From Chthoniobacteraceae bacterium (lineage in GTDB: Bacteria > Verrucomicrobiota > Verrucomicrobiia > Chthoniobacterales > Chthoniobacteraceae), in NCBI GenBank assembly GCA_031409335.1, contig JANNWY010000234.1:1-11866 (forward strand): a stretch of DNA of 11,866 nt, written 5' to 3'. Positions 3,937 through 11,733 of the stretch are shown piece by piece. Numbering within the stretch: position 1 is the first letter of the stretch; the number at the start of each line of letters is the position of its first letter. Both the position numbers and the translations under genes were made by a program. A model generated the notes under the pieces. It did no database searches. It saw only the letters and a program-made list of their open reading frames with translations, and was not told where the DNA came from.

Positions 3937-4203
3937 ATGCTCACCGAATATACTGACGCCGCGATGAGGGAAGCTCATTACGAATTGATGGAAGACGCTC
4001 GTTTCTTTGGTGACATCCCATCGTGCGATGGATGCTGGGCTGACGGTTCCACGCTGGAAGAATGCCGCGAGAATTTGCGCAATGCACTTGATGCCTGGGT
4101 TATCATCGGTCTCCGGCTTGGGCATGAACTGCCGGTCATTGCGGGCGTGGATCTGAACTACACTGCCGCGTCTCCGTCGCCAGAGTATGCCGAAACCAAT
4201 TAG
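3937..4203 (+). CDS. hicB: HicB-family antitoxin, short form (88 aa, no C-terminal DNA-binding domain evident)
   Basis: Shows the HicB partial RNase H-fold pattern 'YELMEDARFFGDIPSCDGCWADGSTLEECRENLRNALDAWVIIGLRLGHELP' (IP..GC...G.TLEE...NL..AL). It overlaps a HicA-like ORF by 17 nt. Confidence 0.88.
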   Translation: MLTEYTDAAMREAHYELMEDARFFGDIPSCDGCWADGSTLEECRENLRNALDAWVIIGLRLGHELPVIAGVDLNYTAASPSPEYAETN

Positions 4204-4405
4204 TCGCCGTGAATTGATTCGACGTTTGCGTGCAATGGGCTGGGAAGGTCCGCGCTCGGCAGGTCCGCACATGGTCATGTTGAAAGAAGGTCGTCGGATC
4301 AGTGTTCCGAATCCTCACGGAGGAGATATTGACTGGACACTTACAAAACGGATTCTGAAAAAGGCGCGTATCGACCCCGCCGCCTGGGATAGTCTGGGCT
4401 CTTAG
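4187..4405 (+). CDS. hicA: HicA-family toxin (dsRBD-like mRNA interferase, 72 aa)
   Basis: Small basic protein with the HicA pattern 'RELIRRLRAMGW...SAGPHMVM....RRISVPNPHGGDI...L.KRILKKA', including the G-x-H motif with the putative catalytic His. Adjacent to hicB. Confidence 0.88.
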   Translation: MPKPISRRELIRRLRAMGWEGPRSAGPHMVMLKEGRRISVPNPHGGDIDWTLTKRILKKARIDPAAWDSLGS

Positions 4406-4489: not shown

Positions 4490-5974
4490 ATGGGAAAACC
4501 AACAGGCTTCATCGACTATCTCCGCGAAATCCCCGCCGACCGCGCTCCGCTCGAACGCACGCGCGACTGGGGGGAATTTCACCTTCACATGCCGGAGGAA
4601 AAACTCCGCACGCAGGGCGCGCGCTGCATGGATTGCGGCATCCCGTTTTGCCACACGGGCACGCTCATCAGCGGGATGGCGAGCGGGTGTCCGGTGAATA
4701 ATCTGATCCCGGAGTGGAACGATCTCGTCTATCGCGGGCTGTGGAAAGAGGCGCTGGAGCGGCTGCATAAGACGAACAATTTTCCCGAGTTCACCGGGCG
4801 CATCTGCCCCGCGCCGTGCGAAGGCTCGTGCGTGCTCGGCATCAATGAACCGCCGGTCACGATCAAAAACATCGAGGTTTCGATCATCGACAAAGGCTGG
4901 GATGAAGGCTGGGTCACCGCGCAACCGCCGCAGGTGCGCACGGGTAAAAAGATCGCCGTGATCGGGTCCGGTCCCGCCGGGCTGTGCGCGGCGGCGCAAT
5001 TGAATCGCGCGGGACACATCGTCACGGTTTTCGAGCGCGCGGATCGTCCGGGCGGGCTGCTGATGTATGGCATCCCGAACATGAAGCTGGATAAGAACGA
5101 GGTCGTCATGCGCCGCATCCGGCTGATGGAAGCGGAAGGCATCACCTTTCGCTGCAACACCGAGGTCGGGAAAGATATCACTGCCGAACAGCTCCGTGAG
5201 GATTTCGACGCCACGATCATCGCCACCGGCGCGACAAAACCGCGCGATCTTCCCATCGAAGGCCGCGAGCTGAAGGGCATCCATTTCGCGATGGATTTCC
5301 TCACCGCGAACACGCGCTCTGTCCTCGATCAGCACAAGAACGGCAACTTCATCACGGCGGAGGGCAAGGATGTCGTCATCATCGGCGGCGGCGACACCGG
5401 CACCGACTGCGTGGGAACATCCATGCGCCACGTCTGCCGCAGTCTCGTGCAGGTCGAAATCCTCCCCAAACCGCCACTCGATCGCGCGAAAGACAACCCG
5501 TGGCCCGAGTGGCCGAAGGTTTACAAACTCGACTACGGCCAGGAGGAAGCCGCCGCGAGATTTGGCGACGACCCGCGCGTTTACACGACGACTGCGACGA
5601 AGTTCGAGGGCGACGAAAGCGGCCACGTCAAAGCCATCCACACCGTGCAGGTGGAATGGGCGCGCAACGACAAAGGCCAGTTCATTCCAAAAAACCTCCC
5701 CGGCACCGAAAAGGTGCTGCCCGCGCAGCTCGTCCTGCTCGCGATGGGTTTCCTCGGACCGGAGCAGCCGTTGCTCGACTCACTCGGCGTCGAGCGCGAC
5801 GCGCGCAGCAACGTGAAAGCGGATTTTGAAAAGTACCACACCAGCATCCCCAGCGTCTTCGCCGCCGGGGACTGCCGCCGCGGTCAAAGCCTCGTCGTCT
5901 GGGCCTTCAACGAAGGCCGCGGTGCCGCGCGCGAGTGCGACCGCTGGCTCATGGGCCACACGGATTTGCCGTAA
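4490..5974 (+). CDS. gltD: Glutamate synthase small subunit (likely NADH-type)
   Basis: MGKPTGF start, Fe-S motifs [11 protein letters not shown]...GCP and [23 protein letters not shown]-binding [16 protein letters not shown], second Rossmann motif [11 protein letters not shown] and C-terminal [16 protein letters not shown]. Lies downstream of gltB. Confidence 0.98.
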
Positions 5975-5987
5975 GTTTTCGGCGCGG

Positions 5988-7382
5988 TTAGCGTCCGGGC
6001 ACTTTTGAACTCGTCGCTCGCGACCGCGTGGCAGCGGCCGCGGGCGTCGGCGCGGGTGCGGGCCTGGCCTTTGCGGAAGTTTTCACCGCAGTCGCCCGCC
6101 GCGTCGTGGGAACTTTCGGCTCTGGCACGAGCGATGGCAGATCGAGGTACTTGTCGAAATCTTTTTGCGTGTAGGTCTTGTTCACCAGTTCCGTCCGCCC
6201 GATTTCCGCGGCGGTCACGCTTTCGATTTCCGCGCGCCCGTTCACGATCGTCGGCGTGAGGAAAATCATCAGCTCGCTTTTCACGTCGCTTTTCACGGTG
6301 CGGCGAAAGGGCATCCCGATCACGCCGGGGATGTCGCCGAGCAGCGGGATTTTCCGCACCGATTCGATCTTCTGCGTCTGCATCAGTCCGCCGATCACGA
6401 CCGTCTTTCCATTCGGCGTCACCACCACGGTTTCCGCGGAACGCTTCGCGATCACGGGCGCGCTGGCATTGCTGGAAATCGGCACGCTTTGATCCGTGAG
6501 CGACGAAATCTCCGGCGCGACGATCATCTCGACCATGCCTTCCGAAGTGATGAACGGCGTCACGCGCAGGATCACGCCGACGTTGTCGTAGGTGATCGTG
6601 TTGATGATGTTTCCGTTGTTGTCCGTGCGGCTGTTCGTCACGAACGGCACTTCCTGCCCGACCACGATCACGGCTTCCTGATTGTTGCGCGCCATGATCG
6701 AAGGCCGCGAGAGCACCTCCACTTTTCCTTTCGTGGAAAGCGCGCGGATCGTCGCGCTCCAGTCGTCGTTGAGGATGCGGGCGAATGTCCCATCCGTCGG
6801 ATTCGGGATCACGCCGCCGAACAGGCTGCCGCCAGTGACACCATTCGCGAGCACCGCGGCCTGCGCGAGGTCGGTCACGAGGCTGCTGGTTTTCGTCGTC
6901 GTCACGCCATTGGTCGTGCTCGCGCTACTGGTCGCGACCGTGGAATTGCCCGTCTTCGCGCCGGTCGCAGTGCCATTGTTAAAGGTGTAATTCGCCTCGA
7001 CGCCGATGTCGGAGCCCTTGTTGTAGGTCACTTCCACGAAGACGACTTTGATGAGCACCTGCGGCTTCGGCTGGTCGATCGTCTTCACGACTTTCATCAA
7101 TTCCGCATGCGTCTCCTCATCGGTCACGATCATCAGCGAGCGCGTCTCGGGATCGACCTGGATGATCGCGTCGCCGAGTTCCGTGTTGCTGCGATACTGG
7201 CGCGTGCCGGTCGCGGAGGTGCGATTGCCGCCCGCGCTGAGGCCGCCGCCGGTGCCGCGGTTGGTGGCACCAGTGCCGCCGCGAGTGGCGCCGCCTGGCC
7301 GCGCCGTCTGCGCGTGCAGCGGTGCGGTGAGCAGGAGCGCCGCCAAGGGCAGCGCGAGGATTTGGATGAGATTTTTTTTCAT
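5988..7382 (-). CDS. gspD: Secretin (GspD/PulD-type), C-terminal part: signal peptide + second half of an N-domain + secretin core
   Basis: Sec signal peptide MKKNLIQILALPLAALLLTAPLHA|Q, then a G/T/R-rich linker, then 'IQVDPETRSLMIV...ELMKVVKTID'. Canonical secretin motifs follow: QPKPQVLIKVVFVEV, VLSRPSIMARNNQEAVIVVGQEVPF, NVGVILRVTPFI, TVVIGGLM, KIPLLGDIP, ELMIFLTPTIV. Ends in a P/A/R-rich tail. Confidence 0.92.
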   Translation of the reverse strand: MKKNLIQILALPLAALLLTAPLHAQTARPGGATRGGTGATNRGTGGGLSAGGNRTSATGTRQYRSNTELGDAIIQVDPETRSLMIVTDEETHAELMKVVKTIDQPKPQVLIKVVFVEVTYNKGSDIGVEANYTFNNGTATGAKTGNSTVATSSASTTNGVTTTKTSSLVTDLAQAAVLANGVTGGSLFGGVIPNPTDGTFARILNDDWSATIRALSTKGKVEVLSRPSIMARNNQEAVIVVGQEVPFVTNSRTDNNGNIINTITYDNVGVILRVTPFITSEGMVEMIVAPEISSLTDQSVPISSNASAPVIAKRSAETVVVTPNGKTVVIGGLMQTQKIESVRKIPLLGDIPGVIGMPFRRTVKSDVKSELMIFLTPTIVNGRAEIESVTAAEIGRTELVNKTYTQKDFDKYLDLPSLVPEPKVPTTRRATAVKTSAKARPAPAPTPAAAATRSRATSSKVPGR

Positions 7383-7418
7383 GGAAAAAAGTGAGTGCGT
7401 GGCGAGTCGTGGAAAATC

Positions 7419-8996
7419 TCAACGTCCGCTCCGGCCACCGCCACCGCCACCGCCGCCGTTGTTCGAGAAATCCGAAGTGTCCATCGTCGCGCCCTGCGTG
7501 CTGCGGTCGTTGAGCCGGTTGTTTTGCTGCGTGCTGGAAATCGCCGACTGGTCGCCGAGCACGCCGCGCAGGACGGTCGCGACCGTGTCCGGGTCCGCGT
7601 TTTCCAAACGATACGTGTACACGCGCTGCTTCTTCGCATCGGTCGCGTCGAGCCGCCCGACGGTTTCCGCGATCTGCATCATCGTGTCGCGCGAGGCGGT
7701 GACGACGAGCGAATTGGTGCGCGCATCGCCGACCGCAACCACCTTCGCCTGAAGCAGCGCGCGTTCGCTCGGCTGGCCGGTGCCGCTCGTCGGCTGCTGG
7801 CCGCCGAAGCCGCCAAAAAATCCGCCGAATCCACCGCGTCCACTTTGGCTGCGACCGTTGCGATTCTGCGAACTGTTCGATGTGTCTGGGTAAAGTTTCG
7901 TCAGCGTCTCCGCGAGTTCCGTCGCGTCCGCGTGGAGCAGCCGGAAAATCCGCGTCTCCGTCGTCGCGTCGATGCTCGTGTCCAGCTTCTCGACGACGCC
8001 CGTGATGTCCGGGATCAACTCCGCCGGCGCGCTCACGATCAGCGAATTGCTCTGCGCATCCGCCACCGCCACGATCCGCGACGCCGCCTGCCGCGCCTCG
8101 CTCTGCCCCGTGCCCGAACTACCCCCGGGCGTCCCTCCAAATCCGCCGAACCCCGGAAATCCACCGCCGCTGCTGCTGCCGCCACGATCCCGATTTCTCC
8201 CGCTGCTGCCGCCGCTCGTCGTCACTTGAAAGAGCGAAGTCACGATCGTCGCGAGTTCTTTCGCGTCCGCGAAGCGCAGCGGATAAACCTGAATCGTCGA
8301 GATGCTCGCCACCGACGTGTCGATCGCGCGAATGATCGTCGCGATGCGGCGGATATTCGTCTGCGTGTCGGTGAGCAGGATCGTGTTCGCGCTTTCGTTT
8401 GCGGTGATCGTCGCGTTTTCCGAAAGCAGCGACTGCAAATTCTCGACCAGCTTCGCCGCCTCGCCGTACCGCAGCGGCAGAATTTGCGTCACCATTTCAT
8501 CTTTGCGCGGGATCTGCTCGGGATCGCTGCCCTGATGCACCGGCAGATCGCGCTTCTGCGCATCCTTCCGGTTCACGATTTTCAAAATCCGCCCGTTACG
8601 AATCGCGATGAATCCCTTCTCGATCAGCACCGCATTCAGCAAATCCACCGCTTCCTCCGCGGAGATTTCCTGGCGGCTCGTCACATTCACCGTCCCGCTC
8701 ACCTGCGCCTCCTGTACGATGACAAAGCCCGCCGCTTCGCTCAGATAGTTCAGCACTTCGGTCAGCGGCGTGCCTTGGAAATTGAGGATGATGCCGCCTT
8801 TGCCCGCGGCTTTCGCGGGCGGCGTCGCCTCGGTTTTTGGAAGTGGCGCAGTCGCATCCGGCGCGGGTACCGCGACGGCAGGCGCGACCGGCTTCGGCAG
8901 CGCGACAGGTTCGGATTTCGGCTGCTGCGCGAACGCTGCGCAGGGCAGGAGTAGCAGCGCGGTGAGCAGTGCGATTTGGCGGGGCAGGGGATTCAT
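7419..8996 (-). CDS. Secretin N-terminal periplasmic module as a stand-alone protein (N0 + three complete NolW-like N-domains + first half of a fourth; no secretin core)
   Basis: Signal peptide MNPLPRQIALLTALLLLPCAAFA|QQ and a Pro/Ala linker. GspD N0 domain 'IILNFQGTPLTEVLNYLSE..GF..V....VSGTVNV.S...IS.EEA..LL..VL...GF'. Three repeats of the pattern '(I/V)xxL.(Y/F/H)..A..L...L ... N(S/T)L(I/L/V).....I...I..LD'. Ends with a half repeat 'RVYTYRLENADPDTVATVLRGVLG' and a Gly-rich tail. Stop is TGA at 7419-7421. Confidence 0.88.
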   Translation of the reverse strand: MNPLPRQIALLTALLLLPCAAFAQQPKSEPVALPKPVAPAVAVPAPDATAPLPKTEATPPAKAAGKGGIILNFQGTPLTEVLNYLSEAAGFVIVQEAQVSGTVNVTSRQEISAEEAVDLLNAVLIEKGFIAIRNGRILKIVNRKDAQKRDLPVHQGSDPEQIPRKDEMVTQILPLRYGEAAKLVENLQSLLSENATITANESANTILLTDTQTNIRRIATIIRAIDTSVASISTIQVYPLRFADAKELATIVTSLFQVTTSGGSSGRNRDRGGSSSGGGFPGFGGFGGTPGGSSGTGQSEARQAASRIVAVADAQSNSLIVSAPAELIPDITGVVEKLDTSIDATTETRIFRLLHADATELAETLTKLYPDTSNSSQNRNGRSQSGRGGFGGFFGGFGGQQPTSGTGQPSERALLQAKVVAVGDARTNSLVVTASRDTMMQIAETVGRLDATDAKKQRVYTYRLENADPDTVATVLRGVLGDQSAISSTQQNNRLNDRSTQGATMDTSDFSNNGGGGGGGGRSGR

Positions 8997-9216: not shown

Positions 9217-9792
9217 TCATTTCCCCATCTCCTTCGCGCGCCGCTCCATCATCTTGCGCAGGATTTCGCTTTTTGCATCGCCGCCAGCGGGCGGCGCGGG
9301 CGGCGCGGCCCCATCAGTCGCAGTCGTCGCAGTCGGCGTGGCCGCAGCTTCCTCCGCCGGCTCCGCCTCCAACGGATCGCCCGGCTTGCCCTCGATCCGA
9401 AACGGGGTCCCGATCACCAGCGTCAGCTTTTTCCCCTCGTGCTCCAGCTCCACCTGCGACGGCTCGATGCCGGTGACTTTGTAGTTCGCCACCGAATCCC
9501 CGACGCCGATCACCTTGCTAAACTCCGAGCGCGACCCGCTGAAAAACGCCAGCGAACGCCCTTCGCGCACCATCGTCCCCGTCAGCGTGAACGTGCTCGA
9601 GCGCGGCCGCGACGGCGCACTCGGACGCGGCGCCTCGACCCGCACAGCCTTCCGGTTTGGATCGAAAATGTTCCGCGTGCGCACGGCTTTGAAAGCATCG
9701 TAGCCTTTGGCGTCGGCCGCATTCGCCGACGGGTCACATGCGATCCATGCGACCCATGCGACCCATTTGAGGCTACTGGTAAATGTCTTCAT
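9217..9792 (-). CDS. GspC/PilP-like periplasmic protein (HR-domain-like)
   Basis: N-terminal export signal, 'RNIFDP' motif, Pro-rich linker and HR/PilP-like beta domain 'FTLTGTMVREGRSLAFF...KVIGVGDSVANYKVTGIEPSQVELEHEGKKLTL'. Located between the PilO-like and secretin genes, with an ATGA overlap (9789-9792) with the upstream gene. Confidence 0.65.
   Translation of the reverse strand: MKTFTSSLKWVAWVAWIACDPSANAADAKGYDAFKAVRTRNIFDPNRKAVRVEAPRPSAPSRPRSSTFTLTGTMVREGRSLAFFSGSRSEFSKVIGVGDSVANYKVTGIEPSQVELEHEGKKLTLVIGTPFRIEGKPGDPLEAEPAEEAAATPTATTATDGAAPPAPPAGGDAKSEILRKMMERRAKEMGK
9737..9766. repeat. 9-bp tandem repeat (CATGCGA[T/C]C x3.3) encoding WVA-WVA-WIA in the N-terminus of the GspC/PilP-like gene
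   Basis: catgcgatc catgcgacc catgcgacc cat read directly from 9737-9766. Confidence 0.8.
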
Positions 9793-10328
9793 CGCCTTTT
9801 CCCTCCCTCGACGAGCCGCACAAAACTAAATCGCATCGTCATCGTGAGCTGCGTCCCTTTCGCATCGCGCGCCGAGATTTCGCACTCCTCGACATGCGCG
9901 GGCAGCGGGTCGGTTTCGATCTCGTAAAGCAACTTTCCCAGCGTTGCCTGATCGCCCGTCGCCGACGCGCGGCACTCGAAAGTCTCGCACCTTTCCTCAC
10001 CCGCGCGCCACTGCGGCACGAGGCTGGTGAAATTCACCCGGCTGTCCAAAGTCCAGCGACCGATCGCCTGGAAGACTTCATTCTCCGCGAGCGAAATATC
10101 CTCGGGCATATCCGTGCGCTGCATTTCCTCCCAGCGCGTCCGCAGCGATTTCTCGCGCGCCACCAGTTGCCGCCCGCGCTGCACCTGCTCGCGCAATTCC
10201 GTGAGCCGCTCGCCCTGCGCCTTCCAGCTTGCGAAGGCCGGCGTGATGATCACGCGATCCAACAGGAACAGCCCGACGACCGCGCCGACGCCGATTTTCA
10301 AAAGTGTTTCGCGTCGATTATTTCGCAT
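9789..10328 (-). CDS. GspM/PilO-like inner-membrane platform protein
   Basis: 'NRRETLL' followed by a single TM (IGVGAVVGLFLL), a coiled coil (ERLTELREQVQRGRQLVARE) and a ferredoxin-like periplasmic pattern 'ECRASATGDQATLGKLLYEIE...AHVEECEI...LTMTMRFS'. Overlaps the upstream GspL-like gene by 11 nt. Confidence 0.72.
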   Translation of the reverse strand: MRNNRRETLLKIGVGAVVGLFLLDRVIITPAFASWKAQGERLTELREQVQRGRQLVAREKSLRTRWEEMQRTDMPEDISLAENEVFQAIGRWTLDSRVNFTSLVPQWRAGEERCETFECRASATGDQATLGKLLYEIETDPLPAHVEECEISARDAKGTQLTMTMRFSFVRLVEGGKRR

Positions 10329-11733
10329 CTCGTGGGACCCATTTGTAGGTAAAGGAAAACTGCACCGGCTTCTCGCCGCGCACCGACTGCACTTGCACCG
10401 CCGTCACATCCGGCCGCGCGCGCAGCCGCCCGAGCATCGCCAGCAGCGCCGGATTACTTTGCGCAGAGCCGCTGCACGTCACTTTGAAATCCTCGCCGAT
10501 CTGCACGCTCTTCGCCCACACTTCGCCCTGTTCGGGAAACGCCTCGGTGATGCTTTCGAGCACCTGCAAATTCAGCGGCGCGGATTCGAACCAAGGTCGA
10601 AACCGCCGGATGTTTTGCTGGAGCGATTCGAGATCCGCGACGTTGCGTTTCATCCCGTCCCACTCGGATTGCAGGCTGCTTTCGATTCGCGAGCGGTTGA
10701 AAAACATCAGCACTGGCAGCACGATCGCGGCGACTGCGGCACCGATCATCCAGCGCCGTCCGCGACTGTCGAAACGCGTCGCCATTTCCTGCCAGCGATT
10801 GACCTGCGGCGGCAAAAACTCGAAGGCCACGGGAGCCTGCTTGAGATGAAGCTGCGCCGCCGCCAGACCCGCCGCCGGATGATCCTCGCCCGCTTTGTAG
10901 GCCGGTCGCTCCAGCCGGCTGGCGATCCCCATCCGGTGCAAATGCTGCCGGATTTCGATGCACAGATTTTCCGCAGAATCCGGCGCACCGCCAAACAGCG
11001 CCTCCGTCACCTGCCCGCGAATCATCTCCGGGAGCCGACCGAGCGTGATGCGGACTTCGCGCGAAAATCCGAGCGCGTCGAAGCCCGCCGCATTTTCCCC
11101 CGCCGCACCCGGCAGCGAGCGCAGCGCCGCGATGCCGCCGCCCGCCGCGATCACGACATCGACGTGATTCCCATTCGCGAGGAAATGCAGCGCGGCGGGC
11201 GACTCCGGCGCGGGCATACATTCGTCGAGTCCCAGCGAAAGCGAGACCGCGCGGCATCCCGCCACCGCCAGCATTCGCTCGATGGCCTCGGCGCGTTTGG
11301 AAGGGATCGCCGCGAGCGTCGCGCGCGGCTTTCCATCCGGCAGCAGGTAGCTGCAATGCGCGATGCGGAGGTCGGAAACCGGGATCGGGAATTCGCGTTC
11401 GGCGCGCAATTCGAGATAGCCGCGCAAGTCCGCGGCATCGACGCCCGGCACATCTGTTGAAGTCGTGAGTGCCCAACCTGCTGGTACGCACACCACGCAG
11501 CGCCGCTCGCGAATCCCCGCCGCCGCGAGCCCCTCCGCGAGAAGCTGCCCCGCTTTTTCCGCATCCGCGATCACCGCCTCCGCGCCGATGGGCAAACTGA
11601 ACGAGCGCGCGACACTGCTTCCACCTTCATCGCGGCGCACCAGATCGACCGCGATGCGCCCCGACTCCAGCGACACGGCGAGCACCGCGCGCGCTTGGAA
11701 ACGTTTCTTCAAAGTGGCGAGGTCCAGTTTCAT
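10318..11733 (-). CDS. GspL-like protein (actin-like PilM-type cytoplasmic domain + TM + PilN-type periplasmic domain)
   Basis: N-terminal 'LAVSLESGRIAV...CVVCVPAGWALTT...ELRAEREFPIP' resembles PilM/GspL. TM 'RRWMIGAAVAAIVLPVLMFF', a coiled coil, and a PilN-like C-terminus 'LESITEAFPEQGEVWAKSVQI...VTCSGSAQS...LLAMLGRLRARPDVTAV'. Synteny with the M-C-D-like genes supports the call. Confidence 0.75.
   Translation of the reverse strand: MKLDLATLKKRFQARAVLAVSLESGRIAVDLVRRDEGGSSVARSFSLPIGAEAVIADAEKAGQLLAEGLAAAGIRERRCVVCVPAGWALTTSTDVPGVDAADLRGYLELRAEREFPIPVSDLRIAHCSYLLPDGKPRATLAAIPSKRAEAIERMLAVAGCRAVSLSLGLDECMPAPESPAALHFLANGNHVDVVIAAGGGIAALRSLPGAAGENAAGFDALGFSREVRITLGRLPEMIRGQVTEALFGGAPDSAENLCIEIRQHLHRMGIASRLERPAYKAGEDHPAAGLAAAQLHLKQAPVAFEFLPPQVNRWQEMATRFDSRGRRWMIGAAVAAIVLPVLMFFNRSRIESSLQSEWDGMKRNVADLESLQQNIRRFRPWFESAPLNLQVLESITEAFPEQGEVWAKSVQIGEDFKVTCSGSAQSNPALLAMLGRLRARPDVTAVQVQSVRGEKPVQFSFTYKWVPRDAK

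Follow-up and report, generated by a model that had tools for sequence, protein, structure and literature searches.

A type II secretion system secretin encoded by two adjacent genes that divide its last N domain

The locus described here raises the question of whether a type II secretion system (T2SS) secretin that is spread over two open reading frames is a damaged gene or a pore made from two chains. The locus lies in a window (the whole stretch of DNA analysed) of 11,866 nt from a Chthoniobacteraceae bacterium (contig JANNWY010000234.1). In one-chain GspD, as represented by PulD (6hcg), E. coli GspD (5wq7/5zdh), EpsD (5wq8), XcpQ (5wln), and the family model TIGR02517, a single polypeptide runs from N0 through the N repeats to the secretin core. 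The same order is found here across two genes, called A and B (Table 1). The one-chain GspD structures and family are the best sequence and fold matches, and a T2SS gene cluster is a further shared feature. The differences are the two genes, the two predicted signal peptides, the division of the last N domain between the genes and, often, an additional N repeat.

Table 1. Features of the two-gene secretin locus and neighbouring T2SS-like genes, in window coordinates.
Feature	Position	Strand	Basis
Gene A, GspD N-terminal portion (525 aa)	7419..8996	-	ORF; TIGR02517 positions 1-332, Pfam, AlphaFold2 model
Predicted Sec signal peptide of A	8928..8996	-	Residues 1-23, AFA end then Gln; best 11-residue hydropathy 2.6
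Orphan beta1-alpha1 of last N domain (A 458-482)	7551..7625	-	Kept in 119/120 A homologues; dN/dS 0.26
LxxR motif (L495, R498) in A tail, typical of split forms	7503..7514	-	126/127 split loci vs 5/55 fused loops
Spacer between A and B, 36 nt	7383..7418	-	129 junctions have a median of 28 nt
Gene B, GspD pore portion (464 aa)	5988..7382	-	ORF; TIGR02517 positions 263-600, Pfam, model, fold match
Predicted Sec signal peptide of B	7311..7382	-	Residues 1-24, LHA end then Gln; hydropathy 2.83
RQY...LG motif (Y63, G70) preceding orphan half of B	7173..7202	-	Y63 0.99, G70 1.0 in 127 loci
Orphan beta2-beta3-alpha2 of last N domain (B 71-103)	7074..7172	-	Pfam 31-69/69; model pLDDT about 88
gspC-like gene	9217..9792	-	NF041515 E 2e-9, below family cut-off
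gspM-like gene	9789..10328	-	NF040576 E 4.5e-9, below cut-off
gspL/pilM-like gene	10318..11733	-	TIGR01709 E 9e-6 and TIGR01175, below cut-off

Gene A encodes, in order, a predicted signal peptide, a Pro/Ala linker, N0, three complete N domains, an orphan beta1-alpha1 unit, and a tail. Pfam places N0 (PF21305) at residues 71-140 and finds four Secretin_N stretches (PF03958), and the N0 and N repeats of a T2SS GspD are thus present on this gene by both Pfam and the structural model. In the AlphaFold2 monomer model N0 is followed by three full beta-alpha-beta-beta-alpha repeats and then by a lone helix (residues 469-479); unlike the beta1 of the three intact repeats, the orphan beta1 (residues 458-464) does not form a strand in this model. 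Gene B encodes a predicted signal peptide, a Gly/Thr linker, an orphan beta2-beta3-alpha2 unit, the secretin core, C-terminal helices, and a Pro/Ala/Lys tail. Its Pfam matches are to positions 31-69 alone of the 69-position Secretin_N model and then to Secretin (PF00263, E 9e-46), its best fold matches are GspD, and its orphan half aligns with the latter half of an intact A repeat (probability 94 %). The monomer model of B has strands at 73-76 and 83-86 and a helix at 89-102 ahead of a GspD-like core, with pLDDT about 88 in the absence of A; AlphaFold2 often folds isolated fragments with confidence. Helices are also present after the core in this model.

A preliminary description of this DNA had placed half of an N domain on each open reading frame and a second signal peptide on B. 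Both points are borne out: the open reading frames and the two segments translate at the coordinates given there, the Pfam and model results leave B with the second half of the domain and A with a terminal helix, and B begins with a hydrophobic leader that ends in LHA before a Gln. The signal peptides of A and B were called by hydropathy and cleavage pattern only. Both predicted mature chains start with Gln (window positions 8925-8930 and 7308-7313), as does that of B in 125 out of 129 junctions. Such Gln-first mature chains resemble the pyroglutamate rule of Bacteroidota.

In this window gene A ends in a TGA at 7419-7421 and the ATG of B starts at 7382, 36 nt further on, both on the minus strand; the two genes share one frame here and are 12 codons apart. 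No promoter-like or terminator-like site was found in the A/B junction. The stop codon on which the preliminary description depends was compared with contigs from two sequencing runs of one study (X1, from which this DNA may itself derive, and X2), which cover positions 7000-7800 with zero letter differences, so that the junction is identical in both. A 447-base joint in two runs was not taken as a deletion, since it lies between diverged contigs with unknown sequence between them.

Related loci were inspected in genomes and metagenomes, 154 in all with duplicates included. The secretin is split in 147 and fused in none, and seven were left unscored, six of them with no A half in the upstream DNA examined and one with B in pieces. 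After duplicates and three copies of G023, in which B starts in another frame, had been dropped, there were 129 distinct junctions. All 129 are broken at the same place, within the last N domain's loop, and A and B are adjacent in every junction scored. The two-gene arrangement and breakpoint proposed in the preliminary description are therefore shared by related genomes, and its close homologues are not single fused frames. Relative to A, gene B is in frame 0, 1, or 2 in 43, 46, and 40 junctions, respectively, the stop codon of A is TAA in 59, TGA in 45, and TAG in 25, and the spacer length varies. With frames, stop codons, and spacers spread in this way, no conserved read-through can yield a single chain.

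A hydrophobic leader is present on B in 126 of the 129 junctions, followed in 125 of these by small-x-[AGS]-Gln. Among the three junctions scored without it, L170 has a leader after a long extension, and L205 and L206 each have one that precedes a frameshift and lies in a different frame. The tail of A is never hydrophobic over the junctions scored (maximum hydropathy 1.42). Additional stop codons or frameshifts are present inside A in L035 (G007) and in or before B in L039 (G016), L037 (G023), L205 (G482), and L206 (G442); these extra breaks may be assembly errors or decay. Six genomes for which open frames of 611-957 aa were listed, and which seemed to be fused, were all split on inspection (for G521 and G421 the listed length disagreed with the translation), and an apparent split at another site in L068 (G306) was rejected because the break sits at a run of N. 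In L181 (G377), 496 nt, apparently with an inverted-repeat element, separate A from B, and both frames are open in the DNA examined. The split is real and it is old.

Of 401 genomes in the class, 85 match a profile of B at E 1e-75; the matching genomes represent 31 family codes and 50 out of 188 genera. For 41 of these genomes the DNA was read; the other 44 were judged by listed open frames of no more than 518 aa, a length that could not accommodate a fused chain, although such listed lengths disagreed with the translation in the two cases named above. Named records with the split belong to Chthoniobacteraceae, Limisphaerales, and other Verrucomicrobiota, and an A-B pair is also present in one genome outside the class (G277). 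As the loci were gathered by likeness to B, fused members could be under-sampled. On the A side, however, the 120 best homologues reach up to 919 aa and none has a secretin domain; 119 of them end 35-47 residues past the orphan half, and the best B relatives longer than 812 aa are at most 42 % identical.

The surroundings of the two genes are those of a T2SS. In addition to the gspC-, gspM-, and gspL/pilM-like genes upstream of A, the best gspE-K matches of this genome are on contigs C104 and C78; matches to gspC, E, F, G-K, L, and M are therefore all found, most of them below curated cut-offs. In the complete genome G523 the order is gspE-F-G-H-I-J-K-L-M, an open reading frame without a family match at the gspC position, A, and B. 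There, a gene for a beta-strand repeat protein (TIGR02601; L210:9441-10475) follows B on the same strand and is a possible substrate. In the present window a HicB-like (UPF0150) and HicA pair lies on the plus strand at 3937-4405, between gltB (to 3894) and a gltD-like gene (4490-5974), both of glutamate synthase.

Conservation was scored over 127 loci, being the 129 junctions less two with frameshifts, and both orphan halves retain the columns that are hydrophobic in an intact repeat. In the half on A, V459, L464, V472, V475, L476, V479, and L480 are conserved at 0.96-1.0, and in the half on B, I74, L83, I85, V86, L95, V98, V99, and I102 are conserved at 0.99-1.0. In a comparison with four close relatives, the orphan halves of A and B have dN/dS values of 0.26 and 0.10; the corresponding halves of the intact repeat have 0.19 and 0.095, the secretin core 0.07, and the B leader 0.84. 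Both orphan halves are under purifying selection, with that of A evolving somewhat faster than its intact counterpart (mean identity 0.62 vs 0.67-0.72).

The new ends left by the break are also conserved. Besides the LxxR of the A tail, a Tyr stands 14 residues ahead of D77 of B in 126 of 127 split loci, and in one of 55 fused forms. The fixation of LxxR and Tyr at both new ends suggests, at the level of sequence, a contact specific to the split form; the shared ancestry of the split clade could explain part of this fixation. Mutual information between the A and B orphan halves (127 paired loci, effective number 74, and so underpowered) reached a top z of 4.7, which does not exceed that of shuffled pairings (a mean of 4.76) or of unrelated control stretches.

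The nearest one-chain relatives are about 40 % identical, and A and B map on them end to end; two of the top 38 long fused relatives are labelled Tepidisphaeraceae. Fused relatives keep the last N domain whole around a Gly/Ser/Thr loop, 34-121 aa in length with a median of 86 (resolvable in 55 of 79), and this loop coincides with the break site of the split genes, exactly where the preliminary description had located the split. In a quick secretin-core tree of 42 rows the split forms make one group, sister to fused forms (SH-aLRT 98), and in a tree of 17 rows the split group is supported at 100/100, with further fused forms outside both groups. Given a loop at the break site in fused relatives and a split clade beside fused forms, the simplest reading is gene fission within the loop together with the gain of a signal peptide on B. 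The conserved junctions, the B leaders, and the supported split clade likewise uphold the earlier view that this is not a pseudogene. Three short proteins, P0338, P0395, and P0400 (the last with a Candidatus Brocadiaceae label), have a leader and the same half domain and are placed among the fused forms, so that a second origin of the split is possible; a single clade of split forms that includes them is not rejected by the AU test (p 0.255). Giant one-chain secretins are also related to the group, P0335 with 4238 aa and P0308, P0343, P0365, and P0369 with 4694-5532 aa. The 43 Secretin_N stretches ahead of the core in P0335 imply a very long periplasmic vestibule.

It is probable, at roughly 0.72, that A and B are a T2SS GspD in two genes, both chains of which are exported by Sec and together rebuild the last N domain in trans. 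Each chain would be exported through, and cleaved from, its own signal peptide, A would supply beta1-alpha1 and B would supply beta2-beta3-alpha2, and the rebuilt domain would link the pore ring with the vestibule in the periplasm, presumably with A and B in a 1:1 ring. The LxxR and Tyr at the cut ends may act as a clasp. N3 is reported to be essential for secretin oligomerisation (PMC6155069, PMC6946019), and B alone is therefore without part of a required domain, which A carries. Tentatively, and with considerable doubt, the split might also be an assembly switch, such that the pore chain cannot oligomerise until the vestibule chain gives it beta1-alpha1, with LxxR and Tyr as the clasp. If so, pore formation would depend on a second exported chain that is also bound to the inner-membrane platform.

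The main alternative is that B forms rings alone, its half domains packing against one another or on the base of the barrel, and that a ring of A docks without a canonical N domain. This would fit the folding of the B half in the model without A, the invariant Y63 and G70 of B, which could cover the exposed face, and the rhizobial RhcC2, which bears the pore on a chain apart from RhcC1 (PMC3459982). It is nonetheless unlikely, as it leaves the buried-type hydrophobic pattern of the A orphan half without a partner in A, and the halves on A and B complement each other exactly, neither overlapping nor leaving out an element.

That the split allows different vestibules to be swapped onto one pore, as the preliminary description had suggested in speaking of a detachable or exchangeable vestibule, is highly improbable. 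The length of A does differ by lineage, with three complete repeats in 74 of 102 loci and two in 28, and L181 tolerates its insert between the genes. However, a second orphan half was sought in this genome and none was found: it has one A and one B with orphan halves, alongside other secretin-domain genes. Each of the 85 genomes likewise has one B match, and the 13 relatives that match A strongly have one such match apiece, with a further 91-aa piece at a contig end in G003. With a single A and a single B that are neighbours in every scored junction, an exchangeable vestibule is unsupported. Finally, the proposal that the stop codon is an error or pseudogene lesion, or is bypassed by read-through or frameshifting to give one chain, could draw on the shared frame of A and B in this window and on the few loci with extra breaks, but it is refuted in substance by the even use of frames, all three stop codons, and variable spacers over the junctions, the absence of fused loci among the 154 examined, the purifying selection, and the exact match of the junction in the contigs of two runs.

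The preliminary description knew of no characterised precedent, without excluding one, and two are published (PMC3459982, PMC8134430). RhcC1 and RhcC2, of rhizobia and of the T3SS-2 of P. syringae, are a two-gene secretin with an N-terminal part and a pore part (PMC3459982, PMC3574062, PMC3973906), and these genes are described as having different origins, through partial replacement by a Tad secretin, and as not being adjacent (PMC3459982). A and B, in contrast, are adjacent, have T2SS rather than T3SS neighbours, are broken inside a domain, and both map on the same fused GspD proteins. A BON domain was sought on A and B by Pfam without a match, and the Tad-like pore of RhcC2 is not seen here.

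The second precedent is the mitochondrial T2SS, which likewise has its secretin in several polypeptides. There GspDN2 corresponds to the C-terminal and GspDN3 to the N-terminal half of an N domain (PMC8134430). In the available part of that report a two-hybrid signal is given for GspD with GspDN1, and none for GspDN2 with GspDN3. As described, the mitochondrial halves are small separate proteins, whereas those of A and B are joined to the vestibule and the pore. The mitochondrial system is also eukaryotic and without N0 and GspC, while N0 and a gspC-like gene are present here and the relatives are Verrucomicrobiota. Tentatively, the mitochondrial halves and the possible second bacterial group might reflect repeated cutting of this one loop. 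A literature search for this bacterial split found no description, with thin coverage of subscription journals, and the text on split and fission available from PMC6668835 contains no secretin of this kind.

The A/B pair is a real, conserved and new form of GspD. Its architecture is that of a T2SS secretin, but it is neither one chain nor intact in N3, with scores of 229 and 252 bits against the TIGR02517 cut-off of 351 bits. As they fall below family cut-offs, such pairs can be misread as fragments. The split demonstrates that the N3 loop can be cut, and a natural, widespread two-chain N3 would allow completion of N3 as a trigger of pore assembly to be tested with a short peptide, apart from the function of the vestibule. 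For the mitochondrial T2SS and its half-domain proteins, the pair also provides a model in bacteria.
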